Shown here: positions 3,053 through 28,829 of the stretch, piece by piece | Layout: every line of letters starts with the position of its first letter | Position numbering within the stretch: position 1 is the stretch's first letter | Origin: Catajapyx aquilonaris | Lineage: Eukaryota | Direction of reading: 5' to 3' | Assembly (NCBI GenBank): GCA_000934665.2 | Contig: JYFJ02003375.1 | Span: forward strand, 1-42,749 | DNA length: 42,749 nucleotides | Position numbers and translations under genes: made by a program | Notes under the pieces: model-generated | What the model was told of the DNA's origin: nothing | The model's input: only the letters and a program-made list of their open reading frames with translations | Databases searched by the model: none

Positions 3053-3947
3053 CAAAAGCGCCACCTTCAGACGCCTGAACTTCAAGGGCGCGAATTACCT
3101 CACACGTGAATAATTGTGGCTAATTAATCATAGTTTCCACTCAGGAGTCGCGGAAGCTTCCTTATAAATACAATGACTGCCTGCCTTGAGGGTGGTCAAC
3201 TCAAGACCTTGGCGCCACAAAGGTCGATCATGAGAGCTGGTGACCTACCCACACTGCTGTTTATAAATGGCTAAATTAATTTGAATTTCTTTTTTCTTTT
3301 TGGAAATAGTTTTTATTGACATTCATATACTAAATAATACAGAAAAATTTCAATTGATTGGCCCTATAATTATTGCACATGTGGATACAACCTGAAGTTT
3401 TTTTAAAGCAGAAAAAAATGAAAATCATGCAAGGTGATTAGATGATGGCAGAAATAATGCAGAGATTCTAAAAACTATTAAACCAGGAAACTAAATGTAG
3501 CCTATCAGTATGCACACGGGTAAATATCAATTAAGTAAATTAATAACCTCTATTATTTCGTTCTGCCAACCTTCTTCTTCCTAAGCACCTCGAATGTAGG
3601 CTACATTGTGCAATGTGCATACTTATTACTAGATAATAAATTAATGGATTTTTTCTCCGTCCATCAATGTAAGAGGAAGTTGGAAAGAAACAAATGATGC
3701 ATAAAACACATGGTTTACTCAAAGTACATTATTAATTGCGAGTCCCTAGCTACAACCTTGAAGTTTTTAAAGCGCAATGACGCGATTGAGTAGAAGTTTC
3801 CCCGATCATAATTATCATCCCGTACGTATACTCCCATCCCCCACGTGCCCCCAGTACCGCTCAGCACTTTGCCGCACTTACTTCCTGTATTACACTCAGA
3901 AGCAACCTGCACTGCAAGTATAGATGAGCCTATAAGAAGAGGCTGCG

Positions 3948-6900
3948 ATGGGAACTTCAGCAGAGGTATGGTCAAACAGACTCGCTCTAAAGTTACCAGG
4001 CCTAAGTTAGGCTATACACATATACTGTACTAACAAGTGTTGTGTTTACATAAGGAAAGTTTTAAGGACTATTTGTAATAATTACTATGAAACCAAAAGT
4101 AGCCTACTTGTGAGTAGTGACAACACCAATGATGAAATGCTGTACTAGTACAGAACCTTGCTTTGACGCTGAAATAGTAAATATTACAGTAGAAACCAAT
4201 AATGAAGGAGTACGGTATTACTTGAAAGCTCTCACTGACATATAGAAAATTATTTCCCAGACTTGACAGCCAACAGCATCATGAAAGAGTAGACTCTTAA
4301 CAACGTTATAATATAGCATTGTTAAGAGTAGTCTACTCTTTGATGATGCTGTTCTTTGACAAGTGAATTTGCAAACGAAATATTCTCTAAAACATGCTCA
4401 AGATGACACCCTATTTATAAATCAAGTCATAAGTACACGTATCTAATTCGTCAAATTATAATTATATCCCTATGTCACTTTTTAACCATTCCTTTAAACT
4501 ATTTAGAGCTCTGCAATATTGCATAGATGTTGATAAAAAGGTAATGTATACCTGACTGGCAAGCGGTCTTGCGAAATAGGAATGTTGGCCATTAACATTT
4601 CTTTTTTCTGTGTTTCTATATCCCAATGTTGAATCCTGCATTGGTAACAGAATATAGCATAACAAGAAAGCGTGCTCCCCCCCCCCNCCCCCCCGAACAA
4701 GCTCGTGGCTTGAACAAGTGGTATATAAAAACAAACATAATTACTGTATAAGCAAATTAATTAATTTAATAAACAATCCATCTAAGAGTGAATTGTACAG
4801 AATTATCGTTTATAATACGTAATTCACTGTCCCTGGATAGATTACGTATTATAAATATTATTATTATAAATAACAGGTGGATGATGCTACTGAGACTAAT
4901 TATTAGTCTCAGTAGCATCATCCACCTGTAATGCTGCGTAAAGAGGTTCCGTGCCTCATGCACCTACACTTCTCATCATAACTCACCTGAACTTCACAGA
5001 AAACAAATTAGCACCACGCTACTTATCTCTCTCTGACAGTGAGAGGCAATAAGTCAAATCTGAAAAATAAAAAATATATACTATATATAATTATGCGCCA
5101 CGGAAAAACCTTCAAACATGAATATCCTGGCCGGTATATTCAAACGCACATATGGCGCCACAGGCATCATGGACTGTGGACCCGTTTTCACAATATTATA
5201 CCTCCAGAAATTCTACTACCTTATTACGCAAAAAGCACACCTCTTAATAGCTATACTAATCAGTAATCACCCGGCAAGAGACAGGCTCCGTGCGAAAATT
5301 ATCGCGGAATTTCTCCCGTAATAGGCCTACATCAGGCGAGGTATTCCGTGCACAAAATTATGGATTAACCTTATCAGTATCCTTTACTCTGATAGGCAGC
5401 ACCGGTAAATGCAATGCGGTTGCGTAATTTACGACGCACCTGCGTGTGTGACTTGTATTTCCATAAGTGTTGAGCAAAACAGCAAAGACGTCAAATCCCC
5501 TTTTCGAGAAGCAAATTAAAATTGAAAAAAAAAACAGCAACATTGTTAAAATCCAACCAATATCGGCAAATCACGCGAGCGTGATTCGAGCAGACTTTTC
5601 CTCATTCCCATTAAGGAAATTCAAATTATGATGAGCCAAATAATCTGGGATCTTCTTCCAGGATTTCAAGACGGCCAAGAGACTGGCCACCTCGTTCAAG
5701 TATATGGACGTATCTCTTCGTAGAGAACAGCTGGAGGGACTGCTGAAACTTTATCTGGACAACCGGGACGCACTGGTGGACAGCCTGGTCCAAGAGCACA
5801 AATCGGTTGGCGGCACTGCTCTTTTTGACGAGAACCACGACCAGTTTAACAATTGTTACATTCAAGAATGTTAATTTCTGTCTTTGTTGAGAAGACCGAG
5901 CCAAAAATTGAAATTAATTTTCTATATCAGAATGAAGGAATTCCGTTGGCTTTTTACATTATACCAACAAAACCTACCCTCGTTGACGGAAATTGTGAAT
6001 TTTTGAGGAACGTGCTAGATATATACAAGGTGTTTCAACTTTTATGTCCGAACAGTTATCGGAAATATTGCACTTTGTAAGCAGTGTAGACTATGCCATT
6101 TCAACCTAAGATTCGCAGGGAATATTCCCCATTCCTCCGACAAACCGGTTGCAAGTCACTGCTTACAAAGTAGGAGCTTATAGTGCAATATTTCCGATAA
6201 CTGTTCGGAAAAAGTTGAAACACCCTGTATATATGTCAGCAACAGATGTGTACGCATGAGAATAATTAAATGCCATATAAATCCCCCGATATCCATCTAA
6301 CTCGAAGCTGGTACGCCTTTACAAAGTAGGCTACTGTGCAATGCAGTATTCTCGTAAATCGAGATTTTATTCTCTTACATTTTCTGGCTCAAATTATAAT
6401 TCACGTTGTCATTAGGCTACATACTCGTCACTAAGAACAGCTTCCTTACAATTCCGCCTACTGAACAGCCCAACTATGAAGCAAGAATAAGCGTCGGCTA
6501 CCTCATCCAAGACGTGAAGCACATCCTGCAGAGCCTGAAGCAATGGACGGAGGAAGAACATGTAAGTCATACTTCATAGATTCGTCACAATGTGGTGAAT
6601 AAGACGCTCCTCTGGAATCAAACATAAGATCCACACTGATTCATCTGCCGTGTTTGCGGCTTCTCGTTAATTTTATTGGAAAAGTACTAGCCTACTGTCA
6701 TTTCCAATTACGCACGCCCCTCCCCATCCATTGTTGATTGTGAACGTCTCTTTGCACTGACATTATTTAATAATGTAATGCATCATTCTTACTCCGATCA
6801 ACTAATCTGCATCTTTCGCAGATTCCGAAGTACATGCTTTGGCACCGAAACCGTGACACGATGATGAGGGTCCCATTTGGATTGGTTCTTTTGGTGTCTG

Positions 6901-8812
6901 CCGGATGCCACCCTCTTCATCTGGCATTGTTGCCGTTAGCAGCAGCCATCGCAGCTGGCAACTGCGCATTCGTCCATCCCTCTGGAATAGCACCAAACAC
7001 CACCAAGATGATAGCCGACATGCTGCCCAGATACCTGGACCAGGTGAGCTTTTCTGCGTCGTCGTGTTGCACCCTTCATGTATACCTTTGGTGTTGTGCA
7101 AGTTGTGTTCAAAACTTTTCTTATTCTTGCAATGAAGCAACAATCCTCAAGCGCGTGTTTGCATGCATTTAGGTTACTTATAGCCCACGATCTGGGGAAA
7201 AACCTTTTCTAACGTTTCTCGTACACGATTCAATTCTTGGAGTAGTAATTTTGTGATGAATGGATAATTGTTTCCAGGAGGCATATCGAGTCATACCAGG
7301 AGGAAGTGACGTGCTGACCGACCTGTTGCAACTTCCGTTTGATCACATCATGTACCAGGGACCAAGGATGACTGGTAGAGAAGTTTGTGATGCTGCTGCT
7401 CAACAAATGATTCCAACCACTCTCATCATGCACTCAAAGAAGTATTCTCTTGTTGACCCCAACGTTGTTGTAATAATTATTGTTCATTGTTGTATGCGGC
7501 ACCTCACTCACATGTACAATTTAGCCCAGTATACATTGACTCAACGGTGGACGTCAACGTGGCAACTCGGCGACTTCTGTGGTCCAAATGCGCTGATCTG
7601 GGCCAATCCTGCCTCTCCCCGGACTACCTGGTCTGCGATTCTTCCGTTCAGACGGACGTGATCCGTTGCGCACCGGACATCCTGAAAGAGTGGTTCGGAC
7701 AAAACTGGCGAGAGTCTCCCGACATGGGACGAATCAGAAGTGACGAACACTTCACGTACGTCGCAATGATATTCAAAGTGCTCGACATCATATTATTGGG
7801 AGAAGTTACACAGCACCGAGGAAACTCGAAACCGATCCACGAATAAAGTTGTATACCAACATTATCATTATCATTATATCTTTTAATGACATACAGTATG
7901 TTGTGTTTCTGAGTTATAGCAATAATGCTTCGCTCATAAGCCAAAATTGGACCGGTCCTAGACTAAGTTACATGGTGACACATATGTATAAATGAGCCCA
8001 CATTCTTGACGCTTGCAGGCGCCTGAAGAGTCTCCTCGAGCGCACCAAGGGTCAGGTGGTGGTCGGCGGTGACCTGGACGCATCTGACAGGTGGGTGTCA
8101 CCCACCATTGTTGCCAACGTGCCTGAAGACGACCCTCTGATGACCGAGGGTCCCATCATGGGTCCAGTGCTACCCATAGTGATCTGCCACAGCCACTTGG
8201 ACGCCTCCAGAATGACCAAAAATTGGTATGAAATGAACAATGAAGGGTAACTATTTCATGACGACCTTTCACTTTCTTTCTATTGTTGCAGCGACCCGAC
8301 TCACTTGGTGGCATATTTGTTCACTGCCTCGCGCATTAAGCAAGTGCAGAGCATGTACTACTGTGACAGCGGCACGCAGTATGTGAACGACTGCATGGGC
8401 CACGTACCCGGTAAGTTATGAGTCACGTTAGCTAATCTCTCTTTTAGGAAGAGGCGTTGCCAGTGTGGTGTAATTACAATGGGTGCGTCTAATATTGTTG
8501 GCGATTTCAGGAGAGGACGTGCCCTTAACGGCCAAAGGATGGAACGGCTGGGGCACCATCGGAGGCAAGCACACCTTCGAGGCCCTGTCTCGCAAGAAAG
8601 GCATCATCTCGAATCCGATAGATGCAAAGAGCGAGACTCGACGCAGCCACCGATACCCGCCATACTTCGACAGGAATCAGGACTGGGAGGCCATCTTGGA
8701 CCACCACAGCATCAGGCATCATCCATCTCTTCTGCTGCAGAGTGTTTGGGGAGCTGGAGTTGCTCTGGTAGCAGCAGCAGTCCTGATCGTTGGAATATCC
8801 ATGGCTGTCTGA
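3948..8812 (+). CDS. ALDH3/fatty aldehyde dehydrogenase-like protein, copy 1 (499 aa, degenerate active site, C-terminal membrane anchor)
   Basis: Exons 3948-3965, 5662-5805, 6469-6561, 6822-7043, 7278-7441, 7525-7755, 8019-8225, 8292-8410, 8511-8812. All introns GT-AG, total 1500 nt, open frame. ALDH3-like motifs AIAAGN, LPRYLD, FDHI, GQSCLSPDY, GPVLPIV, RYPPY, then a hydrophobic tail. Confidence 0.9.
4261..4364. repeat. Imperfect ~100-bp inverted repeat in ALDH copy 1 intron 1
   Basis: aacagcatcat..aaagagtagactcttaacaa pairs with ttgttaagagt..agtctactcttt..atgatgctgtt. Confidence 0.8.
4873..4929. repeat. Perfect palindrome, 28-bp arms with 1-nt spacer
   Basis: acaggtggatgatgctactgagactaat-t-attagtctcagtagcatcatccacctgt. 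Confidence 0.95.
6026..6227. mobile_element. Tc1/mariner-type MITE
   Basis: Long TIRs (caaggtgtttcaactttt..tccgaacagttatcggaaatattgcact / agtgcaatatttccgataactgttcggaaaaagttgaaacaccctg) flanked by TA on both sides. The paralogous empty site is at ~12167-12180. Confidence 0.85.
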
Positions 8813-9946
8813 GATGCTGAGTCAGGACCGAAATGGTGGGGAAGAGAGGAATTCGGCTTGAAATAATATTCTTCCTGAGTCATGTGAAATTCTCTGCTAC
8901 TACATTGGTCATGTATCGTAATGGTGTTATTACAATCCTCAAATGAAACGCACGTCAATAAAAGGTACGCTACTGGAATGTGCTTCTTGACAGGCCATAA
9001 ATATATTTATTACTTCCATCAGATATTATTATAGTGTATTACGACTTCCCTATATGGGTGTTGGGTTATGAGCAACTTCTGGACAATATAAAAGTTCTTT
9101 CATGAGGGAGCCGTTCTATAAGACTTTTTTCTTCGAAAAAGTCTAAAACGAGAAGTTTCAGATGGAGAACGAAAGGCCCACGATCGGAGATCTCTTAGAG
9201 AGATCTCTAATTATTAATATCTGGCAATCTGGCATAATAAAGTTTTATTTCTATTCTCTATTCTCAATGACAGCATTTGAATGCAATACGCAACTTTTGA
9301 AAAGGATTGTTGGAAAAAAATTAAAGCGCAAAATTATGGCAAGAAAAAGAATGACAGCCACCTAATCTGAAATATTGGTATTAGTCAATTTTTGTGGAAT
9401 TTTCACTCTCTAAATTTTTATTAAAGCTGAACACAAATCAGATGTTTTACAAGTAGGCTCTCTCCTTTAGAATAAATTTAACTTAAGTATCTTGGACACC
9501 ATATTACATTCAAAACGTTTAAAAAATTATATTCGGATTTTCATAATCCGTAACATAAAATCATCTGGACCTTGTATAGACGAGTTGTAGGAAGCAAAGT
9601 GAAAGTAAACGAATACAATGTTATTGAATAATTTTACAGACCTTCTACTTCTTCACGACCTTGAATGCGCAGTTAAATTTTCCCTCCATCCTTCAAAGTA
9701 GTCGGTAATTCGAAAAAAGCGAGAGAAAAGCATGAAGATACCGTGCTTACTCAAGGTACCACCGTTTATTACGAGTCCTACAACCCTGAAATTTGAAGAA
9801 ATTACGCATTAGCTCCGCCTCAAACCACGTACCCTGCCCAGATTGTTCTTCCATCCACCACTTGCCCTCAGTGCTTTGTCGCACTTACTTCATCAGAAGC
9901 AACCAGCAGTGAAAGCAGGTCAGCCTGTATAAGAAGAGGCTGTACG

Positions 9947-12900
9947 ATGGAGAATTTAGCGAAGGTATGGCCAATCACACTCCCTCTTATTACTTCCTCA
10001 AAATATCCTCGTAAAATCAGATTGACATTATCTTATGCAATTTTTGATTCTCTCCCAAATGTTTGCAGTAGTAAAAATATCTATAATGATTGTTGACACC
10101 TGTCCAGGGAATCTCCCTGCATCCGAAGGGAATTAAAAAAATAACTATGAACCAACTTGATAAATGGCAAAAAATTAGGCGAAAGTAAGAGAGTAAGAAA
10201 GCGAGAGACAGGGGGGAGGGAAACCCTCACCAGGCGGCAGCATCGAAGCGACATCCGACGGTGAAGTGCAGAAGTAAGAGAGTGTCCATCCAGGAGGTGG
10301 CGCCCGGAACGGCGCGCGCCGAAATTGGGAAGTAGGTGGAGCAGTAGTCGGCGATTTTTTTTTCGGTCTTTTGCGTTTGACAAAGTCCCTCGGCTCTTTT
10401 TCCAAAAGACAAAAGTGGTTTTCAAATCTAGAAAACACGGGTAAAATTTTGACACCCCTCCCAATGTTGTAGGCCGTACGGTGCGGAAGGAGTTTCCATC
10501 ACAGTCGGGTTTTAATAATATAAATTATATAGGGTAGTGCGGTAGTCTATCGCCTCTTAGTTGCTACATTATTTGGCAATGTGAAGCATAACACAAAATT
10601 CTAAAATATTGGTGTGTGTCTATACCAAAACTAAAATACACCCTGCCTCTTGAAGATTCACGCAAAGTTACAGGGTGCTGAGGTCCTGAGCATTGAAGAT
10701 CACACAATGGAGAGGTATCATTAATTTTCCTCTCCGCACTTCCTTGCCATAATAATATTAAGCAATTCTTAATACGAGTAATATATGAGATTTTGATGTA
10801 GTAAGTATCCTAACAAAGGCTGTATTTTTCATTCCGCAAAGTTAAAAAATGTAAAACGAAAGCTACTTGTGAAAACACCTAAGATGAAAATGCAGAACCT
10901 TGCATTGACGCTGAACAACTAAATGTTAGAAATCAAGTGAAAGATTGTAACAAATTGAGGAAAAGTGATTTGGCTTAGGAGAGAGGGGATTATGTTTTGC
11001 TAAAAATAAGTATACGAGTATATAGGAAATTGACAGAAACAAAAGGAGGAAATATTTTTAAAAGATTCTGAGACTAGTCTTTACGAGTCTTTATACTTTA
11101 AACCTCAAAATTCAGTGCACTGAATTCCTACACTTATTCCTACACGGCATCGCAAGCGTCATCGTCTGTCGTTCCTGGTTGTTCCATCAGCATTTCTCAG
11201 CACTGTACTGTACATTTTATAGGCATTTAGGGCCATATTGGGCCAACAATAAAATAATATTTTATTGCTCTTCCGGCTGGACTTCCCACTAGTAAAGAAG
11301 CTCCCTCGTAAAGGCTTCATGAATTGGACCTGTTTTCACAATAATACCTCCAGAAATTATTCTACAACTGTACCTTATTACCCAAAAGGTACCCCTAATA
11401 TAGGTACTTATCAACCGTATATAAGAGGCAGGTTCCGTGCGAAAATGATGGAATTTCTCTCAAAGGCGTATAGTAGAACTTGTATTTCCATGCACAGATT
11501 ATTACCGAGATCTGCTTATTTTTAATGCTTTGCTCCGACATGCAGCACCAGTACTAAAATAATGACATGAAAGCGGTTGAGTAATTTATGCCCCTTCACA
11601 TCGTAACTTGTTTATAAGTGCCAGAAAAATAACAGCTCATCCGGATACTAATATAGTGGCACATATAAAAGGTTCAAAACAATATCGTTTTTAAATATAA
11701 AACGGTAGCCTACTGCTTATATAATGAATATAATTTTTTCATAAATCAGTATACAGGGGTCTAGCATGTTGGCAATAGGGTATTTATTGAATCCACATTT
11801 TATACATAACGGACATAATCTATAATCTAATTAAAATCTTGTCCTAAGAATTATCGTACCCTTTGCATTGTTTATGACGAGCCAAATAATCTTCTTCCAG
11901 GATTTCAAGACGGCCAAGAGATTGGCCACCTCCTTCAAATATGTGGACATGTATCTCCGTCGAGAGCAGCTGGAAGGACTGTTGAAGCTTTATCTGGACA
12001 ACATGGATTCGCTGGTGGACAGCCTGGTCCAAGAACATAAATCGGTCTGCGACCCTGCTCTTTTTCGATTCGAAACCACGAACAGTTTAACATTTCGCAT
12101 TCCTTGCCAACAAAACCTTTCCGTATAAAAAACAATTATTGAGACTTTTTGAGTAGGCCTAATATGCTCGATATGTCAGAAACAATAGGATCAATCAGCT
12201 GTGTGCTTATGGAAATCATTTAATCCCATATTATAAATCCTCTAGTGAAGCTGCTGGTACTCCTTCAGCAGGTCTACTTTGCAATGAAAATCTCCTAAAT
12301 CATAATTTTATTCTCTTACATGAATTCATGGTGCATAATCACGTCAATCTTATAGACGGACGATTGTACCAATTTTTTCAACCGGTGCACTACTTAAACT
12401 TGAAAAATAATATCTCGAGTGGTAACACAATCATAATAAATATGCAGGGCACCTCAGGGACACCTCCAAGAATGTTTGAGGCAAAATAATTATTATTAAT
12501 CATAATGGCATTAAATGACCAAGTGAATGTACTAAATCCATCCTTGAAGATGCCATAAATTTGGTACTCGGTCGGGAAACATTTCTAGCATTATGCCTTA
12601 CACACTCGTCACTTCGTCAGAGACCTATTTTATATATTCCATCTTCGTCCATTCTAACAGCCCAAGTATGAAGTAAGAATTAGCGTCGGCTACTTGATTC
12701 AAGATGTGAAGCATATCCTGCAGAATCTGAAACAATGGACAGAAGAAGAACATGTAAGTCCCACACTCCCTATACGTAATGACTCATAATGTCACAAAGA
12801 AAGCGCCCCTCTGCCTCTGGAACCAGACATCAGACCCACAGTTACGCCTACTCCTCGGTGATGAACATTGCTTCTGGTTAAATTTATTAGACAAATAATT

Positions 12901-15267
12901 AATTTTATTCACGCCCCCCTCTCCCCATCCCATCCATTGTTGCACTTGCACAGTAAACTTCAGTAGGGCCTATACTCCCCTCCTCCTTTTGTAATAATAC
13001 CCAGATTTAATATGCCTTCGTAATTATAATTTTATTGATCATTCTTGCTTCGACAAACTAATCTGCATCTTTCGCAGATTCCGAAGTACATGTTTTGGCA
13101 CCGAAACCGTGACACGATGATGAGGGTCCCAATTGGATTGGTTCTTTTGGTGTCTGCCGGATGCCACCCTCTTCATCTGGCATTGTTGCCGTTAGCAGCA
13201 GCCATCGCAGCTGGCAACTGCGCATTCGTCCATCCCTCTGGAATAGCACCAAACACCACCAAGATGATAGCCGACATGCTGCCCAGATACCTGGACCAGG
13301 TGAGCTTTTCTGCGTCGTCGTGTTGCACCCTTCATGTAGGCCTATATATACCTTTGGTGTTGTGCAAGTTGTATTCAAAACGTTTTTTTAAATTCTTGCA
13401 ATGAAGCAACAATAACCCTCAAGTGCGTGTTTGCATGATGCATTTGGTTAATTAGCCCACGATCAGGGGAAAAACCTTTACGTTTCTCGTACACGATTCA
13501 ATTCTTGGGGTAGTTATTTTGTGATGAATGGATAATTATTATTGTTTCCAGGAGGCATATCGAGTCATACCAGGAGGAAGTGACGTGCTGACCGACCTGT
13601 TGCAACTTCCGTTTGATCACATCATGTACCAGGGACCAAGGATGACTGGTCGAGAAGTTTGTGATGCTGCTGCTCAACAAATGATTCCAACCACTCTCAT
13701 CATGCACTCAAAGAAGTATTCTCTTGTTGACCCCAACGTTGTTGTAATAATTATTGTTCATTGTTGTAAGCGTCACCTCACTCACATGTACAAATTAGCC
13801 CAGTATACATTGACTCAACGGTGGACGTCAACGTGGCAACTCGGCGACTTCTGTGGTCCAAATGCGCTGATCTGGGCCAATCCTGCCTCTCCCCGGACTA
13901 CCTGGTCTGCGATTCTTCCGTTCAGACGGACGTGATCCGTTGCGCACCGGACATCCTGAAAGAGTGGTTCGGACAAAACTGGCGAGAGTCCCCCGACATG
14001 GGACGAATCAGAAGTGACGAACACTTCACGTACGTTGCAATGATCTTCAAAGTGCTTCCCATATACTGGGAGCAGGTATATACACAGGGTGGATCAGAAG
14101 TCGGTACCTATTTTTATTTCCGAATAACTTTCCAACGAGTATACACCTACGGAAGTGAAATACACACCAATGAGTAAACTGTAGATTCTTTCTGGTTTCT
14201 TTTATCTGGTACCTGCAGAATAATTATCTATTGTTGACATACAGTATAGTTGCGTTTCTGAGTTAGCAATGCTTGGCTCAGAAGCCAAAATTGGACCGGG
14301 TGTATATAGACTAGTTTCGTTTACATTATTATATGGAGCCATAATTATTATGTAAATGAGCCCACATTCTTGACGGCAGTGAAGTGACTCTTGCAGGCGC
14401 CTGAAGAGTCTCCTCGAGCGCACCAAGGGTCAGGTGGTGGTCGGAGGTGACCTGGACGCCTCTGACAGGTGGGTGTCACCCACCATTGTTGCCAACGTGC
14501 CTGAAGACGACCCTCTGATGACCGAGGGTCCCATCATGGGGCCAGTGCTACCCATAGTGATCTGCCACAGCCACTTGGACGCCTCTAGTATCACCAAAAA
14601 TTGGTATGAAATTAACATAATCTGGGCAAATTAACCCGCATGGGGAAGTATTTAAAATGTTAGAAGTCAACAACTAGCACTACTATAGAATCCTTGCCCT
14701 GTAGTTGTGGATTCGCCATAGGTTGTATTAAATGCCGCTGGACAGATTCTACACAGTCTTTGTTGTTTCAGCGATCCGACTCCCTTGGTTGGATACCTGT
14801 TCACGACATCTAGGATGAAGCAAGTACAGTGCATGTACAACTCCAACAGCGGCATACAAAGCATGAACGACTGCATGGCCCATGTACTCAGTGAGTTATT
14901 TTACTTTCGTATACAGTATACGAAGGTTGCTGGCATCAGGCTTCTAATATTTCATGCTATTCCAGGAGAGGACATACATCTGACTGCCAACGGTTTGAAC
15001 GGATGGGGCACCATCGGAGGCAAGCACACCTTCGAGGCCCTGTCTCGCAAGAAAGGCGTCATCTCCAATCCGATAGATGCAAAGAGCGAGACTCGACGCA
15101 GCCACCGATACCCGCCATACTTCGACAGGAATCAGGACTGGGAGGCCATCTTGGACCACCACAGCATCAGGCATCATCCATCTCATCTGCTGCAGAGTGT
15201 TTGGGGAGCTGGAGTTGCTCTGGTAGCAGCAGCAGTCCTGATCGTTGGAATATCCATTGCTGTCTGA
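9947..15267 (+). CDS. ALDH3/fatty aldehyde dehydrogenase-like protein, copy 2 (499 aa, degenerate active site, C-terminal membrane anchor)
   Basis: Exons 9947-9964, 11901-12044, 12661-12753, 13078-13299, 13552-13715, 13799-14029, 14397-14603, 14772-14890, 14966-15267. Exon sizes and phases are identical to copy 1 and the frame is open. Confidence 0.9.
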
Positions 15268-15612
15268 GATGCTGAGCCAAGAGATAGGGAGGTGTCAGAA
15301 ATATTATATTCAAGGTTAACATACTACGCTGAATTGGAGAAATGCAATCATTTTGTGGTGAGGTCACAAATCCTGCCACCAACTATACCCCTATAGCTTT
15401 TATTCTTCCTCTCCTTCTCTGTATTGGTTACAATTGAAAATAGATCTACATTCGCTGCAGATTGACATCTTGTAGTTTATTCGCATTATATGGTCCAACT
15501 TACTGCACATACCTCATTACGGTATTAGCTTAAAAATATTCATGTAGGCCCTATATAAGTACAAGTAACACGCACCAACATTTTCATATTATTAACATGT
15601 ATTGCAATCATT

Positions 15613-15953: not shown

Positions 15954-16708
15954 ATTGCAATCATTTAGGTCCCAGAAGCTGTTGATGCAGTTTTGTATTT
16001 CACTGTTTCAAATTAATGGCTCTTTAACAAATGTTCTGGTGATAAAACACATATACAAGTTATTCTAATAATTTTCCGCAAAAACCAATGGAAATATGAT
16101 GGTTCTGTACACATATTGTTGGCTACTACCAAACACAAACATATCTCAACTGATGAATAATAATGATGCCCCATTTTCTAAGCCTTTTCAGCACCATATC
16201 CTGGCATTTTCTATGGTCATGACACCTTAACATAAACCAGTCCAACAAGATAACCAACAATTGCGACACATGCAGTAGCCTATACTATTGTAGGTCGGTG
16301 AGTAATTAAACATGTCTTTAGCATGAAACATTTTATTATCACCAAGGAAGGTGATGCCAGTACAAAAACAAGACAATTGCTCAATGAGAAAGTAACAGCT
16401 ATTATGCATTCATAATATGGGCAACTTGAAGATGGTGGTGGTTAGCTCATTTTCACTGAATGATGCCAATGATCAAGACACGAACCTTTTCCAACAACTC
16501 CTCCCAACCACCACAACATATATAGGGTCGGAAATATTTCCTTTCATCTCAATTTTGTTTGGAATGGCTCACTTGCCAATTTGTATACCACTCTTTCCTT
16601 TTTCCGTTCTGTCCGCGAATACATAAACGCTCTTGTTCACAACCAGAGTTACAAAGATAATACTCTTCAAGATGGGTACAGTGACGGTATATCACAGATG
16701 ATTCGGCT

Positions 16709-19700
16709 CTATTCCTGGTTGGGGAACTGGAAGGTATCTTTCAGGAACTCATATCCGGCGTACTCCTTCAGGTCGATGCGACGCGACACGTTACGGGCTG
16801 CGTCCTGAGCGAAGTCTATGATCCGTCGCACGAGTGTCGGCTTCACAGTGTCGATCAGGCCTCGGGCGTTCTGGTTCAGGAAAGTCTCCGCGCCTTGCTC
16901 TGAAAATAAACGTTATAGGCATTACACACAACAAAAGGTATATTGGCAGTTCTCAAGTAAAAGGATGACGTACGAAGCACAGCGTTGTCAGGGAAGAGAT
17001 TGTTGAGCCTGATTGATATCTTTTCGTAGTCAAAGTCAGCGTCGGTGTCCACTGGCAGCACCCTGTACACTCCATCGGTGTCCTTGTCCACTGTGAACTC
17101 GCTCACACCCTTCACCAGAATATTCTCTGCAACAACATTGCACATTTATTATCTTTCTTTTTCTTCTCCTTTCATATCGAGAGCATATACCCAGTCGACC
17201 CCAGAAGGTTCCGTCTCCGTTGAGAGGCACGATGGCAAACATTGCGTCCATCTTGTACCTTCCTGACAGGAAGTACTCTGGTATAGTGGCTTCGTAAATA
17301 GCCTTGTGAGACGGATAGTCCACCCTGGAAATAAATAAGGCAAGAATCTATACATTTCCGTTGGCCATCTACGACGTCGGTTGGGGTCAAATGTGACGCG
17401 TACTTGAGCTTGGTGACCTGCAGGTCCTGGAGTCCCTTGACCCTCAGGTCGTAGAACCTGGCTCGGAGGTAGCTGTTCTCGTGGTCGTACTGGTCAATGT
17501 CGAACCGGTCAATCACCACGTTGCCCACAGGAGGGATTTCGAAATCCGGAATACCTTGTAGGAATCAAAATTAATAGTAACTAAATGTTTGCAAGTACGC
17601 AGCGTTCAATCAATTATTGCTAATTAATCCGCCGTCTAATTTTGTACAAGTTATCAGAATCCATTATTACCATTTTTATCAATTCGATCACAATATATTT
17701 TCCAAGGGGGTAATCACTCGACTGAAAAGTGTACACTGGAGGTACCAAATTAAAGGCGTACCACGGAGTAATAAAGAGTGAGGTGCCTGAGGAGTACCAG
17801 GGAGTACCACTCCCAGGTGTACACCGGAGTACCGAAGTGATTACCCCCTTGCAATTTTCAGTTCATCTGTCAATGTTTGTTCATTTTTTTGTCGGTAATG
17901 AAAACAGTCGATCCGGTTCTAGAGTCGATCTGGATCGAGTTGTAAGTATATGCAGTCCTACAGTGTAGATTAGTAATTACCATCTTCGTAATCAGGTTGC
18001 ACGTCCGAGATGAGTTTGAGCAAACACGGCTCCAGATCATCCCTGGTCGTCTTCTGACAACGCTTCACGATCTCATCTGAAATAGTAAAAGAATAAGTTG
18101 TTCAAAGCAAACATTGCATTAATTGAAATCCCAGAGAGTTACCTCAGAAATATATGCCGAATATTTTTCAATGATTAGTTAGTGAAAATGTTTAGAGTTA
18201 CTCAACGAAATGTTAACTTAAATTCACAACCAGCTATCGCCAATGTCAGCATATTCGGAATCCGTGATTTGGCGCAATAATTTTCTACTGCCTTTATTGT
18301 TGAGGTGGGTCGTGTCCAATATACAAATTAACAGCAATTTAAAATAACCTTGACCACGGCTGCGTCCTTTTACAATAATTTTGTGCTAATAATTATATGA
18401 CATGAAACGCCGCTCACATGTGTTGAGAAACTCAGTTAGCCTATTATATATATTTTTTCTGTCATTAGACATGCCGCCACACATTTTTAATGCGCGTTAC
18501 ATGCAATCTATAATTATATTCTGGACTTTACAGTCGTTACTTTTCGCAATTTCTTGAAACTTGTTCAACTTTTTATGGCTGTCATCATGACTCAAGTTGC
18601 CGGTTTTCAGGGGCAAATAACCATGAGGCTCATTGTCTATGGAAATTTTGTAGCGTCACAAACAGGTAAACAATTATTTTGAAAAACAACTCGAACAGGT
18701 TTTAATCACGTGAGAAAGCAATTACTAACTACCAAACAAAAACAAAAACAATGCTGATACTGAGAAAAATATCTCTTTTTATGGTATTCAGTTGTTACAA
18801 GTCCATACACAAAGTCATGACCTGCATAAACACATGCTGAAAGAGAACAGAAATGATGTCAGGCAGGTCAGTTTTTTACAAACATAAATTAATGGAGTTG
18901 CACAGACTCTTTTTAGAGTTTACAATGCTGCTCCTAAAATCCATTAGAGACTAGTTCATTACCTGAATAATACCTGCAAAAGGTACTAGAGAAGTGCTGG
19001 CCAAATGATTAGCTAATGAGATGCGCATAGCTAATGCGAATTATACGATTGCAAATTACTGTCACGCTTTCGATTAGGTCGTTACATGAAAAAATGTTTA
19101 AAAATTAGCAGCCAGAACTCCCATCAATAATTGCTGTAAATTAGCAGCAACATACATGGTTATTGCTGGTTGCTGAAGTGAGGCAACCAGCATATACTTG
19201 TAATAACCACCTTGAAAATTTGCACTCTCCTCTCACTTCTGCGTATTTTTACTTGCAGTAGTAGTTGCTGAATCACCCGGTATTCATGAAGCACAAGGGG
19301 GAAATGCAAAAAAAATTAGTAAAAGTAAACCCCCTCAATTGAATAAATGTTATGTAACTATTACAGTAGATGTTACTTCACATTACTCTCCAGTCGTGAT
19401 AATGAATTAGTGACCTTCAGTCCGTAATTAATCCACTCAAGCCTATATATGTATGTATTACTTAACCAATTCCGGCGCCTTACAAAACCCCTTGAGAACG
19501 GCTCTCAGCAAGAAGATAATCATATGTCTGCATGAACATGAGTAGAAATAGTTCTCATTGCCAATTAATTCATTCATTAATTGTACACTTGAACTACTCT
19601 TGTACCATCGTATGGCGTTCTTAAGCTAATTAGCTTTCATACCAAGTAGCACTTGCACAAAAGCAAATTATAAGGAGCAAATATCACATTAATTATTAGC

Positions 19701-20392
19701 TGAAGTATCGTGCCATTTGAAATCAGTGAACTATTTCTGAATCTGTAATAATTGTTAAATTAATTCACAATGAAGACCTTCGCTGAAATTAAATTACATT
19801 AAATAAAAATCAAAGTTACCGTGAGAGATTAAGATTCAAAGTAATTGTCTATATATGGCCGCAATAATTGTAGATAGATTAAAAGAATTGTCCAGTTACG
19901 TACAGGCGTTAATTTAATTTAATTTTAAATGAATTGATTGTAATAAACTCAAATAATAGTCGCTCTTCTGATCCTTGTAACGTTCAACAGGCTAATGCAT
20001 AATCTAATATTTTCTTCTATTTGAAATTAAATTATAAAGAGCAAATCGACAAAAAATCTTCAATTATATGTCACAATATGATTTTTTTTTTAAACTTCAA
20101 ATTTGTGAGACATAAATTGCTACCGGTTTCCCCGACCTTTCTTCTCATAACAATCGCAATTAAGCTCACGGTTGACCCTGAGAATCCGCGGAAGGTCCAC
20201 CAAACCGACACCGAATTTGACACTGACCACACTCTTGGTCCACATACACAACTTGGCCTCAATTAGTGTGGGTGGGTGGGTGGGCTGGAGAGGGTTTTCG
20301 ACCTTGTCGGGCAAGGTCACCGACTGACCTCTGGACATCCTGGCCTGGGCCACTACCGCCAGGCAGGCGAGCAGGACAATGCGAGGCTGCAT
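16709..20392 (-). CDS. Takeout/juvenile hormone-binding protein (JHBP) family secreted protein, gene A (262 aa)
   Basis: Exons 20392-20329 (signal peptide MQPRIVLLACLAVVAQA), 18076-17981, 17554-17404, 17324-17191, 17126-16974, 16899-16709; total 789 nt. N-terminal Cys pair (CQKTTRDDLEPC), GIPDFEIPP, G.Y...vPlnGdG, NLFPDNAVL..FLNQN motifs. Confidence 0.87.
17703..17851. mobile_element. Small MITE with CAAGGGGGTAATCACT TIRs and internal GGAGTACC repeats
   Basis: caagggggtaatcact / agtgattacccccttg termini; degenerate 8-bp flanks atattttc / caattttc; related copy at 41935-42040. Confidence 0.75.
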
Positions 20393-20477
20393 GGTGGAGA
20401 CTGATGCTGCTGGAGAGTGATGAAGATGTACCCTCGGTGGTGATGGACTGGACCCCTGGCCCTCGACGCCGCCTCTC

Positions 20478-20487
20478 TTTATATACA
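20478..20487 (-). promoter_or_regulatory. TATA box of JHBP gene A
   Basis: Minus strand reads gtatataaaga about 90 nt upstream of the ATG at 20392. Confidence 0.6.
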
Positions 20488-23400
20488 CACCCGTCGAACC
20501 CGGGACCTTCCTATTTGCACGCGCCAATCAGGGACAAGATAAAGGTCTCAAGAGTACAACCTTGCCAATTTTTTGTTCTTGCCGACCTCTCCTTTTTTTT
20601 CCCCTCCTTCCACCATTTGAGATGGACGCTCGCTGTAACATACCGGAGAGGGAAATTTTTCGCAAATCCACCTTGACACACAATGTTTTGACCGCGAATT
20701 ATTCAGCGTTGCCAAAACTCTGGTGTTTGATTCAGAACGTACACATTTTCATTAACTCGCGTCACACAATATAATAAAATACATTACAAAAACTGGTAAG
20801 TCAAGCAGGAGAGCAGAGCGTGGATTTTCCGCGGCGGGTATATGCGTCAGGTTCATGTTTACAACTGTCCTTGACCACTTCTTGCTGCCGTCATTGGCAC
20901 AGACATGCATTGCTAGGCTCAAGAATATGCCATAAACCTTTTTCTCTAACAAAAACATGATATATATTATGCACCATAATCTTCTCTAGCAAGTTCGTTA
21001 GACCACTTCCCTACCAATAGGAGCCACGAGATATTATCTGCATGCCCTTCAGGGCTGTGCAATATCAGGATATTAATATCGAAAATAAGTGTGGTTTAAA
21101 TGTGCATTGCAAATCTCAGAGTCCCATCTAATATTTCAAATGCCTTGCACATATTTTTATTTTAAAATAGGCTACATAAATCATATCAAATCTTGCTGCC
21201 ATATTAGATGATTGCATATAGGGCAGCCTTACTATTATCGCTGCTACCATACGTTTAATATTTATTGCTATCATGTTTTAATATATTACATTGCATTCTG
21301 CATTATTTGTTATTATTATTATTTGTCCTATCTAGCAATTTAAACAATGTTTGAATCAATTGTATAGGTGATTTCATGTATCATTTCCATGTTGCATAAT
21401 ATTTTCCATCTGCTCTTAAAGTACCTATACAATTTCTCCATGTTGGTTTCTGGGTTCTAATAAATATTATCTGAGTATTATAGAGCTAAGCAGGCGGAAT
21501 ATCCCCCTGAGTCACTCTGCGACAAGTTGTCCTTCAACGGATTCAATAATATTATAAACTGGATTTATATGACTACGTAGAAGCGAGCAGAATTGCAGAG
21601 AAAATGTTTTCATATGATTTTTTTCGCTCAGACCGCCAAACGTGATAACAATCTGGTGCGTATATTTTGCATGTATCCTTCCTAACATCCATCCTACATG
21701 CATCTCTGCCGAAATGAGAGCTACATTACATAACTACGAGTACGTACAAATTGTTGTAGATGATGAGTAGTGTATGAGAAAATGGAAAGATGATTACACG
21801 AAGGAAGTGTGTGCGTACAAGGAAATGCACTTTACTTCAGTATGAATTATGGCGATGTAAACAACGCAAGTCACAGTCACATCACAGCAGAGTGTCTTGT
21901 ACTGGAAATGCCATCAAATTTTTTTAACAGCGTGTTATGCAACTGCTGCTTGCTCATTGCAGTCACAAAAGTACTTCTAGGCAATTAACATGCAGCTGTT
22001 CCAGGTAAAAATAAAAGTTGTTTTTCAAACATTAATTATTGGAAATTCCGTGGATTTGAGGTCAATTAAAATTAATGGATTCAGTTATTGACAATGCCAC
22101 AGTGGAGTGTTTTATGGAGTAATTTCATACTAGCAGAAAAATATTTCTGAGAATTACATCAAGAAAGGCCTTTTCGAGAATTCAGACACCAGAAAAAATA
22201 TTGAATATTGAATTTAGAGTATCGCACTTTTCCTGGTGTCGTCCAAACTTTAAGCATAATCATCGTCAACATCACTATATCACAACTACCTAACATTTAA
22301 TTTTTGAGAAGTGAATTGTACAGTCGGTAGTGGAATATGCATAGAGCAAGTTAAATATTCACAACATGCATAACTTTATTACGTGATTATAATATACTGG
22401 ATGCTCTTTAGGTGGGGACAATATTTTTATTATTGTTTTGTACAGTAGTTCTTTCTGGAAAGTGTCCTTGATGGAAAAACATTTCATCCACTACAGAGCA
22501 GGGAAAATATATATGTTATGAGAAAATATATAGGATTATATATATAATCCTATATTTTCTCCTAACTTATATATTTACAACATTACAATATTTCGTAGGT
22601 AAAATGTCTACATTTTACGTACAAAATCTCGTAACTTTCCTCTACAAACAAGTGAAAACGAGCATTTTTCCTAAATTTTGAAACACGTGCAAAGGTTATT
22701 ATGCTGCAGGGAGAGTCACTGCAATATTACCCAGAAATTATTTCCAGGTGTCATAAAAAAACACTTAATGATAATGGGAACCTGTCAAATCATTTACCCG
22801 GAAAGGTCCTCATAAATTCAAGGGGATGTATTGTCCAGAAGTAAATAGAAAATCGTAAAAAAATATTCTTCGATGATATGCAAAAAAAAGGCAAGGAGGT
22901 ACTGGATTTTTTGCAATAAATGTGAATGTAGAAAAGTGCTGGAGCGCAATAGCACTTTTTCGAATATAAGATGAAACATATGCAGTCATAAGATCCTGGC
23001 AGAAAGTGCTGGTGGACGAAGAATTAATGAAACTGTGACGTAATATTTATTACCACTCTTAATTATTACAGACAGAGGCGACGAATACCCTTGATAGTGC
23101 GACTGTTTTCACACGTTAATTATTAGCGACAACTGGGAACATCACGGAAAATCGTGCCACAGCAAACTCGTCCCTGAAACATCACCAGGATTTCCCCCCG
23201 GAAAAGTTCTATAATTAGAATCTAGTTATCCGGCTATAAGTCGTGTTTATATGAGTGCAGAGCCCTGAACTAATCCAGTATAATTACTTTTTCTTGATAG
23301 ATTGCCCAATTTCTTGAGTTTATACGAACACTATAGATCACGATACTTACATGAGTACATGAACTCCGATGGCAGCAAAACACACCGTATAATCCAAACC

Positions 23401-24015
23401 AAAGGAGTAGTTTACAAGAGAGAAAACCGGATGTCACTATATAGCTGCCTATAAAAGTTTATTATTGAGTTATATATACTTCCACCCTATTATAATTACA
23501 TATATGTGTTGCCACAGTCATACCAAAACGCGGGGTGAGTATAATTATAATAACCTATACAAGGTTGTATTACCTGCAATGAAAATCCTACATAGTTACA
23601 AAATTGTAATATGCTCACACCGCGAAAAGTAAAATTATACCGTCTGAGCGTATTTTTTTGGAAAAATAATGTTCCACAAAATTCAACACAATCATATTAT
23701 GATGGCGTGTATCTTCATCTACATAAACATCATGGTGATCTAAACATTTTTACAGCCATGGTGGCTGATTTTGTGAGCTTCCGTTGTGCACTCTCGTCGC
23801 CAATTCAATTTCTTCGCCTCATGGACTCTCCCTGTATTTTAGGCCTCCGTATACATTATACAGTGTTTCCCGAAAGTTTAGGACGTACCACCCCCATCCA
23901 GAGGTTTTTAAATTTATTTTTCAAGCTTAAAGTTACAGAACAAATTGAAAGTGTGAGGCACCGTTGAAAGCGCCATGGAAAATGATGCAACTAAAGAAAA
24001 AGGATTGGTCATTCT

Positions 24016-24018
<3 letters not shown>

Positions 24019-24090
<72 letters not shown>
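24019..24090. repeat. (TA)36 microsatellite
   Basis: Uninterrupted TA run followed by poly-T. Confidence 0.97.
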
Positions 24091-24099
<9 letters not shown>

Positions 24100-25127
24100 T
24101 GCGAAACCCTACATTTTCAACTAACTGTAAGTTACGTACCGGTATGTTAATTAATAAAGGTGACTATCACAAATTGATATTTTCTCTGTGGAAAGAGTGT
24201 GATGGGAAAACTATAAAAATGACTACTTGAATTATAAGAATTTTTGCAATTTCCGGCACTTCTTATATTCACTCTACAAATATTATGATTGACATATCAT
24301 CAATAGCACCTTTCTTGAGAACCTGGGCTGTTACAGAGTTGGGGTTTGGACCTGCTGCTTTGAGAAGTCGTTCTCATTGTTTCTACATTGCGTACTTTTA
24401 AGTTGATGCTAAAGACCATAAACTATACCTGTATAGCCCCTAAGAGCACCACGCTCGTGACTGTCACATTTCAAGGGTCTTTCTGAAGCAACAATTATTG
24501 GGTTAAGAAGTGTAAGAACAACGACAAGTGGGAGATCATTAGTCTGTTGAAAACACAGAGCAGTCAATGGGAGATTACCAGAGTTGTAAGCATTTCGCTA
24601 ATTTCAAAGATGTGTGTTGCGAACACTGCCCCGAAGTGTTCGACATAATACTAACTTGTAGTCTTACAAGATGAGGTTCTCTCTTCATCCCTGCAAAGTC
24701 TACAAACTATGTAAGAGTTAAATCAAGTTGTTAAACGACTATAAACTATATGCGTCACCATGCAGGTAAGGTGAAATAACTAGCGATGGTCAATATCAGC
24801 TGTTTCTCAGCATCTGCTCATTATTTATTTCACACATGCATATGGCATCGACGAGTTGACTTCGGCTAAAATACTGCCTGTGCATTTTTATGAAGTGACA
24901 GTTCGCATCACCTGCACTTATGAATAATAGTAGCCTACTATTGAGATGGGTATTATTCAAACAAAACCCATTCAATAGCAGTTATTTCAACCACGCAATC
25001 TCAGGCAGCAGTATCTCTTTTTTAATGGAAGGGGTGTTATTAATAACAGCTATTTTCAATCAAAGTCATTGATGTTAAACAGAAAAATAATATCTTAAAT
25101 CACGGTCGTTTATAAGTGAGGTAACAA

Positions 25128-27338: not shown

Positions 27339-27542
27339 CTGCGAACAAAAAAAGAGAGATTGTTGCATTATTCTGTGTAATCGCAAGATCTTTTTACCGC
27401 CATTTTAATTCTACCTAGTAAAAACATAAAATGGCTGCAAGAAAATGGCAATTTCAAAGGAAGGGGGGAAAAAATATAGCAAATAATTTATAGGTAAAAC
27501 TTTATTTCTGTTTCTGATGCTGCAATAAATATATGACTTTAA

Positions 27543-28071
27543 CAGCGCCTTCTGGTGTTAATCATCTTTAACATTACGATGTTTTTCGTTTGTTTTTCGC
27601 TTCCAATATGGCCGATAAATTATTTCAATCGACAACAGCGACCACTAGTGCTCCACCTCACAGTTATTGTAGACAGTAGATATTATTTTGTAACAGCGTG
27701 GATTACAAACATGGCGACTGAAATCGACAGCAGCGCCAATAATTCGGGGGAAATCTGCGATTTTTTAGTCTCGGGTTTCAAAATATGGCCGACAAATGCT
27801 ACAAAATAGCAGAGGCCTCTGGTGAGCATTATCAGGTGAAATTTCATTTCTTGTGAGTATATTACAGTACGCCCTTTTACAGAAGAGCCCCCTGGTGATA
27901 GTCTCTGTGAAATATCACGTTTCTTTACAATTCTGCTTGCAAGAAAAGATTTACAAACAATATCGCCAACTAGTGTACTGCAATTGAAGCACTGATTTTT
28001 TTTGTCGAACTTTGGCTTACACAATAATATGGCTGCCAAATCACTTTTTCTCACATTAACGCCATCTGGAC
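27543..28071 (-). promoter_or_regulatory. Array of co-oriented CTCF-like motifs interleaved with YY1/Pho-like motifs
   Basis: Plus-strand cores cagcgccttctggtg 27543, cagcgaccactagtg 27636, cagaggcctctggtg 27810, aagagccccctggtg 27883, tatcgccaactagtg 27961, taacgccatctggac 28057. AA(T/C)ATGGC motifs at ~27605, 27708, 27782, 28026. Confidence 0.6.
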
Positions 28072-28829
28072 TTATTGGCCTAAACTCAATGTTTCTTTCT
28101 TTGCCATGGCTTACAAAGACGGCCATGAGTGGCTTTATTGCAGAGATTTATTACAGGTCGCTGTGATGCATGCGCATGCTAGACGATGCACATGGCAGCT
28201 GGTTACATGAAAAACTTGTGTAACACAATCATGTAATAGAGATTATATCGTAATCTGTGGATGATAATTATGCTTGCATCATAATTATTCAACTTCATAA
28301 CAACTGTAGAAGCCTTACATAATTTTGATTGCAAATGTTGATAAATGTGATTCACGTGAGAAAACGTGCGACACCTTCCCATCAGGCACCTTATAGCAGT
28401 GTTTGATTGCTGCTAATTATTATTATCAGTGGTAGATGACTGGTAACGACTTTAATTAAATTCGAGTCAAAGCATGACAAAGGGTCTTTCTGGGAACATT
28501 GTCTCGGAAACCTAGTTGTTTATTACTCGCACTGAGGGAAGGTAGGTATACTGAGTCAAAATCGGGTAGACTCTGCGAGAATTTATTTTGTATAATAACA
28601 AAAAGGGTTGGTGTCAAAATTAATGCGCAATGATAATCATTACGTTATCGTCGGTACGACAGTAGAAATTATTTCAGTAACAGTCAACAATATTGGTGAT
28701 AATCTCTAACAACAGCGACATTATAAATTTTATTTTTAGTAACAATCATATTAGCGACTGCTTTCAGGTATCAGTCAACAGTAATTTTCAACAACTGACT
28801 AGACACGGCGGCGGTTTAATGTATCTGAC

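Follow-up and report, generated by a model that had tools for sequence, protein, structure and literature searches.

Human FALDH (ALDH3A2, structure 4QGK) and the class III aldehyde dehydrogenases (ALDH-III) of arthropods are the described proteins closest to the products of two tandem genes, referred to as copy A and copy B, which occur in a stretch of 42,749 nucleotides from Catajapyx aquilonaris (JYFJ02003375.1). This stretch, called the window in the following, is one whole contig (label C1728) of the 285.6-Mb genome. In FALDH, the substrate funnel is directed toward the membrane and the cofactor site toward the cytosol, the purified protein held C16 and C18 acids that were tentatively placed in the funnel, and the substitutions N112A, E207Q, C241S and E331Q each abolished measurable activity (PMC4109017). 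With FALDH and the arthropod proteins, copies A and B share their descent, Cys241, the RYPP motif, a gatekeeper-like DW and a C-terminal membrane helix, but they lack Asn112, Glu207, Glu331, Trp111, Lys135, Glu138, Thr184, Phe333, PFGG, Tyr410 and His411 (residue numbers are those of human FALDH, transferred through the alignment to 4QGK). The best explanation appears to be that A and B are tail-anchored pseudoenzymes, ALDH3 by descent, in which residues that identify an active ALDH3 have disappeared.

Omega-crystallin derives from ALDH1/2, and the scallop protein is named ALDH1A9. Non-catalytic ALDHs described in reviews comprise ALDH16A1 and the crystallins (PMC12041015, PMC10650815, PMC8160307). 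Like A and B, vertebrate ALDH16A1 displays the fold without the catalysis, together with a proposed binding or regulatory role, but it belongs to another family, has lost the whole triad including the Cys and possesses an extra C-terminal (Rossmann-like) domain, whereas A and B are ALDH3-derived, membrane-anchored proteins of 499 residues that keep the Cys and belong to an expanded clade. In cephalopods, omega-crystallin, an ALDH derivative without enzymatic activity for which binding of a small hydrophobic pigment has been proposed, resembles what is proposed below for A and B but consists of a soluble tetramer devoid of any membrane anchor (PMC6397165). LuxC, ALDH18/ProA and ALDH20 have similarly lost the Asn and the Glu while keeping the Cys, with a His base in ALDH18 and ALDH20, but these distant families still use NAD(P)H (PMC12041015); compared with such Cys-only enzymes, A exhibits a His two residues past the Glu position, a dismantled cofactor site, and class 3 proteins as its nearest relatives. 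From their sequences, A and B thus seem to resemble the ALDH pseudoenzymes while belonging neither to ALDH16A1 nor to the omega-crystallins. In the literature searched, no ALDH3-derived, membrane-anchored pseudoenzyme clade was found described, although a 2015 survey of ALDH dead enzymes may cover such proteins.

Gene structure and active-site residues of copies A and B

The two genes and their exons, all on the forward strand, are distributed as follows.

3948..8812, forward: copy A, ALDH3-derived gene of 499 residues (open frame, GT-AG introns, spliced alignment, ALDH3 and PF00171 matches)
3948-3965, 5662-5805, 6469-6561, 6822-7043, 7278-7441, 7525-7755, 8019-8225, 8292-8410, 8511-8812, forward: exons of copy A
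9947..15267, forward: copy B, ALDH3-derived gene of 499 residues (open frame, GT-AG introns, homology to A)
9947-9964, 11901-12044, 12661-12753, 13078-13299, 13552-13715, 13799-14029, 14397-14603, 14772-14890, 14966-15267, forward: exons of copy B
3860..3965, forward: 5' leader and 18-nucleotide first coding exon of A; homologous stretch in B at 9867-9964 (73% nucleotide match over 133 nucleotides)

Each copy consists of 9 exons separated by GT-AG introns, totalling 1500 nucleotides, which encode 499 residues and one terminal stop; the two proteins differ at 37 of the 499 residues (92.6% identity). A canonical ALDH3 from outside the genome (P0001), aligned to A with splicing, independently gave exons 3-6 and 8, as well as the donor of exon 2 and the beginning of exon 9; its donor for exon 7 was 21 nucleotides too long, and exon 1 was not reached. 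The introns of A and B interrupt the protein after residues 54, 85/86, 159/160, 214/215, 291/292, 360 and 399/400, at positions and in phases identical to those of the canonical paralog C1549. Judging from the homology of the two leaders, the start codon would lie in a six-codon exon 1; in A, an in-frame stop immediately precedes the ATG, and inspection by eye shows no signal peptide at the start of the protein. The ALDH3 descent is indicated by the PF00171 matches of exons 4, 6 and 7, by the top PDB matches (4QGK, 1AD3, 3SZA) and by class 3 as the best class for exons 4 and 6; the weak similarity of exon 6 to RdRP_1, DUF6125 and UL34 in Pfam and PDB was taken as noise. Identity to the closest canonical homologs of other species amounts to ~35-36%, and a canonical paralog of A and B has arthropod ALDH3 among its top named matches.

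The replaced motifs and the retained nucleophile are located as follows, the first residue number referring to FALDH and the second to A.

6903..6914 (A), 13159-13170 (B), forward: GCHP for WNYP (Trp111 to Gly113, oxyanion Asn112 to Cys114, Tyr113 to His115)
6975..6986 (A), 13231-13242 (B), forward: HPSG for KPSE (Lys135 to His137, Glu138 to Gly140)
7353..7364 (A), 13627-13638 (B), forward: YQGP for YTGS (Thr184 to Gln186), followed by Ile192 to Glu194
7422..7439 (A), 13696-13713 (B), forward: LIMHSK for LELGGK (general base Glu207 to Ile209, Gly209 to His211, Gly210 to Ser212)
7601..7612 (A), 13875-13886 (B), forward: GQSC with Cys243 (FALDH Cys241) kept, TGC codon at 7610-7612
8146..8166 (A), 14524-14544 (B), forward: EGPIMGP for EEIFGP with a one-residue insertion (Glu331 to Pro336 or Gly335, Phe333 to Met338; register in A ambiguous by one residue)
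8522..8533 (A), 14977-14988 (B), forward: PLTA (A) or HLTA (B) for PFGG

All these changes, first named in a sequence-only reading of the window, are present in the spliced frames of both copies, and that reading was equally right in describing the GQSC nucleophile, with its Cys codon at 7610-7612, the 499-residue frame and the ALDH3A2-like membrane anchor as intact. The alignment to ALDH3A2 (4QGK) further reveals that most of the cofactor contacts are gone together with Asn112, Glu207 and Glu331. Ile192 is a listed cofactor contact of FALDH (PMC4109017), Val189 is also changed in A, to Thr, and among the contacts Trp111, Lys135, Glu138, Thr184-Gly185, Val189 and Ile192, Gly185 alone is kept by A.

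The strength of these replacements was evaluated in an alignment of 104 full-length homologs, made of 103 of the 120 listed homologs (17 shorter than 430 residues were left out) and P0001. Position 112 is Asn and position 207 is Glu in all 104 homologs, where A exhibits Cys114 and Ile209, and the positions replaced in A and B are 97-100% conserved, which speaks against chance replacements. Among the 95 columns conserved at 95% or more, A keeps 63, against 88-92 in the three complete canonical paralogs, and the near-invariant columns lost by A are concentrated at the catalytic and cofactor sites. At 15 of the 23 cofactor or catalytic positions tabulated, the residue of A occurs in 0% of the 104 homologs. 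Three of the four FALDH residues shown to be essential by mutation (Asn112, Glu207, Glu331) are lost in A, Cys241 being kept. The joint loss of these three residues and of most of the cofactor site makes a normal dehydrogenase activity of A and B very unlikely and supports the earlier proposal that they are probably not NAD(P)-dependent dehydrogenases, which, on residue evidence, we regard as highly probable.

It could still be argued that A and B are redox enzymes, namely ALDHs of the Cys-only type that use NAD(P)(H) and work slowly or in the reductive direction, taking into account that LuxC, ALDH18 and ALDH20 are active without the Asn and the Glu (PMC12041015) and that A keeps Gly187, Lys213, Trp233 and Cys243, with Glu334 beside the one-residue insertion. 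However, LuxC, ALDH18 and ALDH20 use the nicotinamide cofactor (PMC12041015), whereas A is also devoid of Trp111, Lys135, Glu138, Thr184, Val189, Ile192, Gly209, Gly210, Glu331 and Phe333, and the equivalent of Lys192 is called critical for NAD binding in a review (PMC8160307), which renders this possibility very improbable.

The degenerate ALDH3 clade and its maintenance

Instead of the isolated pair that A and B had been taken for, they form part of a clade of at least 11 genes distributed over the genome. Searches of the genome with exon 4 and exon 7 each detected at least 16 places, from which at least 11 degenerate ALDH3 genes were recognized (A, B, C4791, C948a, C948b, C853a-d, C6514a and C6514b), beside ~5 canonical ALDH3 genes, three of them near-complete, the rest represented, on separate contigs, by two N-terminal halves and two C-terminal ones. 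In the models of the paralogs the first exon is missing and the last three exons were chosen by hand. The nine further degenerate paralogs, with open frames and membrane helices, occupy four regions.

C4791:12253-14671: one degenerate paralog (C4791)
C853:53890-66629: four degenerate paralogs (C853a-d)
C6514:1680-8565: two degenerate paralogs (C6514a, C6514b)
C948:1600-8403: two degenerate paralogs (C948a, C948b)

All 11 degenerate genes have an open frame and a C-terminal hydrophobic helix (hydropathy 1.85-2.72), and they group into one clade with a support of 100/99. A tree with nine degenerate members and 23 outside proteins again gave one clade, with a value of 100 in the Shimodaira-Hasegawa-like approximate likelihood ratio test (SH-aLRT) and a weak sister group made of C1549 and C2139 (88), and A and B are nested there among the arthropod ALDH3. 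Long-branch attraction is possible, but the losses in common are in agreement with a single clade: none of the 11 members keeps Glu207, Trp111, Thr184 or Gly209, and the Ile192 site is charged in nine of them. The site of Asn112 is occupied by Cys in eight of the 11 members and by Asn, His and Asp in one each, a distribution that would result either from one early change and later replacements or from two separate changes of Asn to Cys, a rough count of base changes favouring neither.

Cys241 is kept in five of the 11 members only, while 25 positions are invariant in all of them, and these are of scaffold types (Gly, Pro, AIxAGN, PD). C853c, C853d, C6514a, C6514b and C948a combine a Cys at the Asn112 site with the absence of Cys241, and four of these five also display a Cys at the Glu207 site. 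Such a distribution implies that the family is maintained for something other than the retained Cys, so that the weight given to it in the sequence-only reading is diminished, and a Cys-based mechanism for the whole family was rejected on this count. The covalent carrier and esterase models put forward in that reading could apply at most to sub-clades. We infer that the clade is kept for a role that requires the fold and the membrane, and neither NAD(P), nor the base, nor, in general, the nucleophile. Its history would start with one duplicate of an arthropod FALDH-type gene, in which the base Glu and the TGS motif disappeared a single time and which then expanded, Cys241 being lost later at least twice. 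Owing to its graded losses, with the Cys and the Asn either kept or lost, and to the active paralogs in the same genome, the clade offers a ready-made series in which the role of a dead ALDH can be investigated.

That A and B are maintained proteins, as had been claimed, is borne out by nonsynonymous divergence (dN) well below synonymous divergence (dS), both for A against B and for A against C4791, which contradicts neutral evolution. By simple counting, which is imprecise near saturation, the dN/dS of A against B is 0.22 overall. In the unconverted exons, the dN and dS values are 0.056 and 0.625 (exon 2), 0.055 and 0.838 (exon 3), and 0.187 and 1.125 (exon 8), giving ratios of 0.07-0.17, and the divergence of these exons is rich in synonymous changes (p 1e-6 to 1e-4). 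Between A and C4791, which carry the same altered motifs, dN reaches 0.33 at a dS of 1.33, from which it follows that selection went on after the loss of the catalytic site. In a simulation of neutral decay, both frames were still open in a fraction of 0.0006 of 5000 runs. Ordinary pseudogene decay was rejected on these two lines of evidence.

A part of the likeness between the two copies has a different origin, and two tracts are concerned.

6770..7782 (A), 13026-14056 (B), forward: homogenised tract, exons 4-6 with introns 4 and 5 (94.5% identity over 1038 nucleotides)
8016..8228 (A), 14394-14606 (B), forward, and C4791:12792-13004: exon 7, second probable conversion tract (91% nucleotide identity to C4791, near-identical between A and B)

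Exons 4-7 of A and B are 98-100% identical in most 100-nucleotide segments, the end of exon 9 being near-identical too, and the homogenised exons contain two synonymous differences over 144 sites, whereas exons 2, 3 and 8 together have ~37 over 74 sites (Fisher p ~1e-18). The simplest cause of this near-identity is probably gene conversion, with assembly collapse as an alternative. For exon 7, dS relative to C4791 is 0.21, against 1.33 gene-wide, which suggests a probable conversion between genes now located on different contigs. Since exons 4-7 are near-identical, A and B cannot be taken as independent evidence for the Cys or for six of the seven motif changes: the changes are indeed seen in both copies, as previously stated, but for these six and for the Cys the observation counts once. 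Independent support for the motif changes comes from C4791 and from the remaining members of the clade.

The same near-identity could suggest that the window does not contain two functional genes, but unexpressed relics, or one copy whose middle exons were overwritten with those of the other during the assembly, insofar as 98-100% identity over most of exons 4-7 could stem from collapsed reads. This seems very improbable in view of the synonymous-rich divergence of exons 2, 3 and 8, the open frames and conserved splice sites, the substitutions and indels that distinguish intron 4 within the tract, and the occurrence of the same motifs on the separate contig C4791.

Proposed ligand binding at the membrane and other possible roles

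The C-terminal region of both proteins comprises the following segments.

8753..8809, forward: C-terminal membrane helix of A, residues 481-499, up to the last residue (Kyte-Doolittle mean 2.56 over 19 residues)
15208..15264, forward: C-terminal membrane helix of B, residues 481-499 (Kyte-Doolittle mean 2.70)
8651..8698 (A), 15106-15153 (B), forward: RYPP and gatekeeper-like segment, residues 447-462 (alignment read by eye)

In the gatekeeper-like segment of A, as aligned at the sequence level, Asp457-Trp458 are in register with Asp449-Trp450 of FALDH and Ile461-Leu462 occupy the place of Phe453-Phe454, Lys447 being lost. The funnel positions of A are mostly hydrophobic (Trp233, Leu119, Leu122, Met90, Leu91, Leu244, Met395, Val398, Leu405). 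Hydrophobic funnel positions and a gatekeeper-like segment, in a protein family whose FALDH member has its funnel facing the membrane, lead us to favour, tentatively and with somewhat less than an even chance, a role in which A and B, as pseudoenzymes devoid of a cofactor, would bind hydrophobic ligands, or hold them, at the membrane. The proteins would adopt the ALDH3 dimer fold, located at an internal membrane on its cytosolic side, and bind no NAD(P), hence perform no hydride transfer. A long-chain aldehyde, acid or terpenoid would enter the membrane-facing funnel, to be held or handed on and not oxidised, and Cys243 of A and B may add a reversible thiohemiacetal grip, optional across the family. 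A dead ALDH that holds a ligand has a precedent, by docking, in squid omega-crystallin and xanthommatin (PMC6397165).

Several points weigh against such a binding role. Tyr113, Phe399 and His411 of the funnel are replaced in A, and funnel residues vary even among active homologs. C4791 and more derived members of the clade are devoid of the gatekeeper-like segment, which means that the funnel argument fails for the clade as a whole. The new polar residues Cys114, His115, His137 and His211, shared with C4791, are not explained by simple binding, and Cys-only enzymes with the ALDH fold can be active (PMC12041015). In addition, the ligand, the folding and the expression of A and B are presumed from the sequence; no RNA run was listed for positions 5600-15300, which speaks neither for nor against expression.

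The polar residues just mentioned would be accounted for if A, B and C4791 possessed a repurposed, cofactor-free site, composed either of Cys243 with His115 or His211 as a base (esterase, thioesterase or acyl transfer) or of Cys114, His115, His211 and Cys243 as a metal or thiol-redox site. Cys114, His115, His137, Gln186, His211, Ser212 and Cys243 are the same in A and C4791 at a gene-wide dS of 1.33, and exon 5, where Gln186, His211 and Ser212 are encoded, comes close to synonymous saturation between both genes (proportion of synonymous differences 0.75). Where an invariant residue is replaced in both A and C4791, the new residue is the same at 16 of 23 positions, compared with a background of 79 of 179 (p=0.026); for the core (residues 100-250), however, the excess is not significant (12/17 versus 29/53, p=0.28). 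A Cys occupies the Asn112 site in eight of the 11 members, and a His replaces the Glu as the base in ALDH18, other His residues being used in ALDH20 and a Vibrio enzyme (PMC12041015). Nevertheless, exon 4 is 82-83% identical to C4791 at the nucleotide level and may reflect an older conversion, the shared residues may be merely inherited, and Cys243 is lost in six of 11 members. The esterase activity of ALDHs is reported to be independent of the cofactor but to rely on the same catalytic residues as the dehydrogenase activity (PMC8160307, PMC10650815), and esterase activity in A and B would need a new base, the base Glu being gone. On balance, a repurposed site of this sort is considered unlikely, and its specific form, in which the ALDH3 site of A, B and C4791 would have been rebuilt as a cofactor-free Cys/His centre (Cys114, His115, His211, Cys243) acting on membrane lipids, either by hydrolysis or transfer of acyl groups or by the binding of a metal, is more doubtful still. 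If true, it would represent an animal ALDH-fold enzyme with a new non-redox chemistry, arisen within an expanded family of pseudoenzymes.

The presence of ~5 active ALDH3 genes in the same genome also fits a regulator or scaffold, a dead subunit that would pair with an active ALDH3 paralog or dock on a membrane lipid enzyme and so tune or channel its activity. A and B keep residues of the dimer region, namely Ser386 (Ser380 of FALDH), Lys429 (Arg423 of FALDH, a Lys in 80% of the homologs) and RYPP; ALDH16A1 is proposed to work through protein interaction (PMC10650815), and a regulator needs no Cys, in agreement with its retention in five of 11 members. But eleven diverging copies seem a large number for a single regulator, and seven of the 11 members have lost RYPP, which makes us consider this role rather unlikely, if conceivable.

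Another possibility, based on the stable fold alone, is that of a structural or bulk protein, crystallin-like or membrane-shaping. The omega-crystallins derive from ALDHs and are inactive, ALDH3A1 has a second role as a crystallin of the cornea (PMC6397165), and the 25 positions that no member of the clade has changed are of scaffold types; crystallins are, however, described as water-soluble (PMC6397165), whereas the membrane helix is kept in 11 of 11 members. Such a role is quite improbable. Binding of hydrophobic ligands at the membrane thus continues to be the preferred proposal for A and B.

Relatives in other genomes and neighbouring features

Orthologs of the clade in other genomes were looked for with single exons of 68-74 residues as queries and none was detected, an absence that is weak evidence with such short queries: exon 4 of A gave one match among 1266 candidates, a canonical fish ALDH3, and exon 7 none among 43. 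A profile of exon 4, built from eight degenerate paralogs and run against 1.84 billion proteins, gave 7458 matches, and all those examined (148 of the best 150) keep Asn112 and Lys135; the top match was a canonical double ALDH3 of a chytrid. This protein (P0122, Gonapodya prolifera) consists of 1020 residues with two canonical ALDH3 domains in tandem and is possibly a fused gene model. The ESM Atlas contained generic Aldedh clusters only.

A partial parallel, met among the matches of the exon 4 profile, occurs in the mayfly Cloeon dipterum, where XP_065344250 (P0246), XP_065344251 (P0272) and CAB3387938 (P0270) are tandem ALDH3 paralogs automatically annotated as ordinary ALDH. Like A and B, they are tandem arthropod ALDH3 proteins, here beside a canonical copy, and they keep the Cys and a hydrophobic C-terminal segment. 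Their changes comprise Glu207 to Gln, TGS to TCS and Glu138 to His, and one gene model is composed of two such copies after a canonical one. Unlike A and B, they keep Asn112, Lys135, EIFGP and PFGG. A common origin with the degenerate clade was rejected, the mayfly proteins falling outside it in a quick tree in which their long branch leaves the exact placement unsettled. They look like a separate, milder loss leading to probable pseudoenzymes, and such proteins may have arisen in arthropods on more than one occasion, perhaps in connection with the handling of lipid aldehydes. Automatic annotation would class the genes of the Catajapyx clade as working dehydrogenases too.

Other features of the window are located as follows.

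219-1900 and 2364-2621, reverse: C2H2 zinc-finger exons and THAP domain, upstream of A and pointing away from it
4261-4364 and 4870-4932: two short self-complementary stretches in intron 1 of A
6019-6234: palindromic repeat of ~215 nucleotides in intron 2 of A, resembling a miniature inverted-repeat transposable element (86-91% matches on 38 other contigs among 40 candidates scored)
16700-30400, reverse: tandem array of ~4-5 genes of the JHBP/takeout type (PF06585 on 8 exons among those tested)
38394-39411, reverse: broken frames (no Pfam match for 38394-39101), which we take to resemble a Helitron Rep/helicase
41058-41333, reverse: zinc ribbon of the RNA polymerase subunit RPB12 type (PF03604, E 3e-13)

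The JHBP array starts ~1.4 kb past copy B and converges on it. ALDH3 is the farnesal dehydrogenase of juvenile-hormone synthesis; a functional link of A and B to the JHBP genes is unsupported beyond their adjacency in the window.

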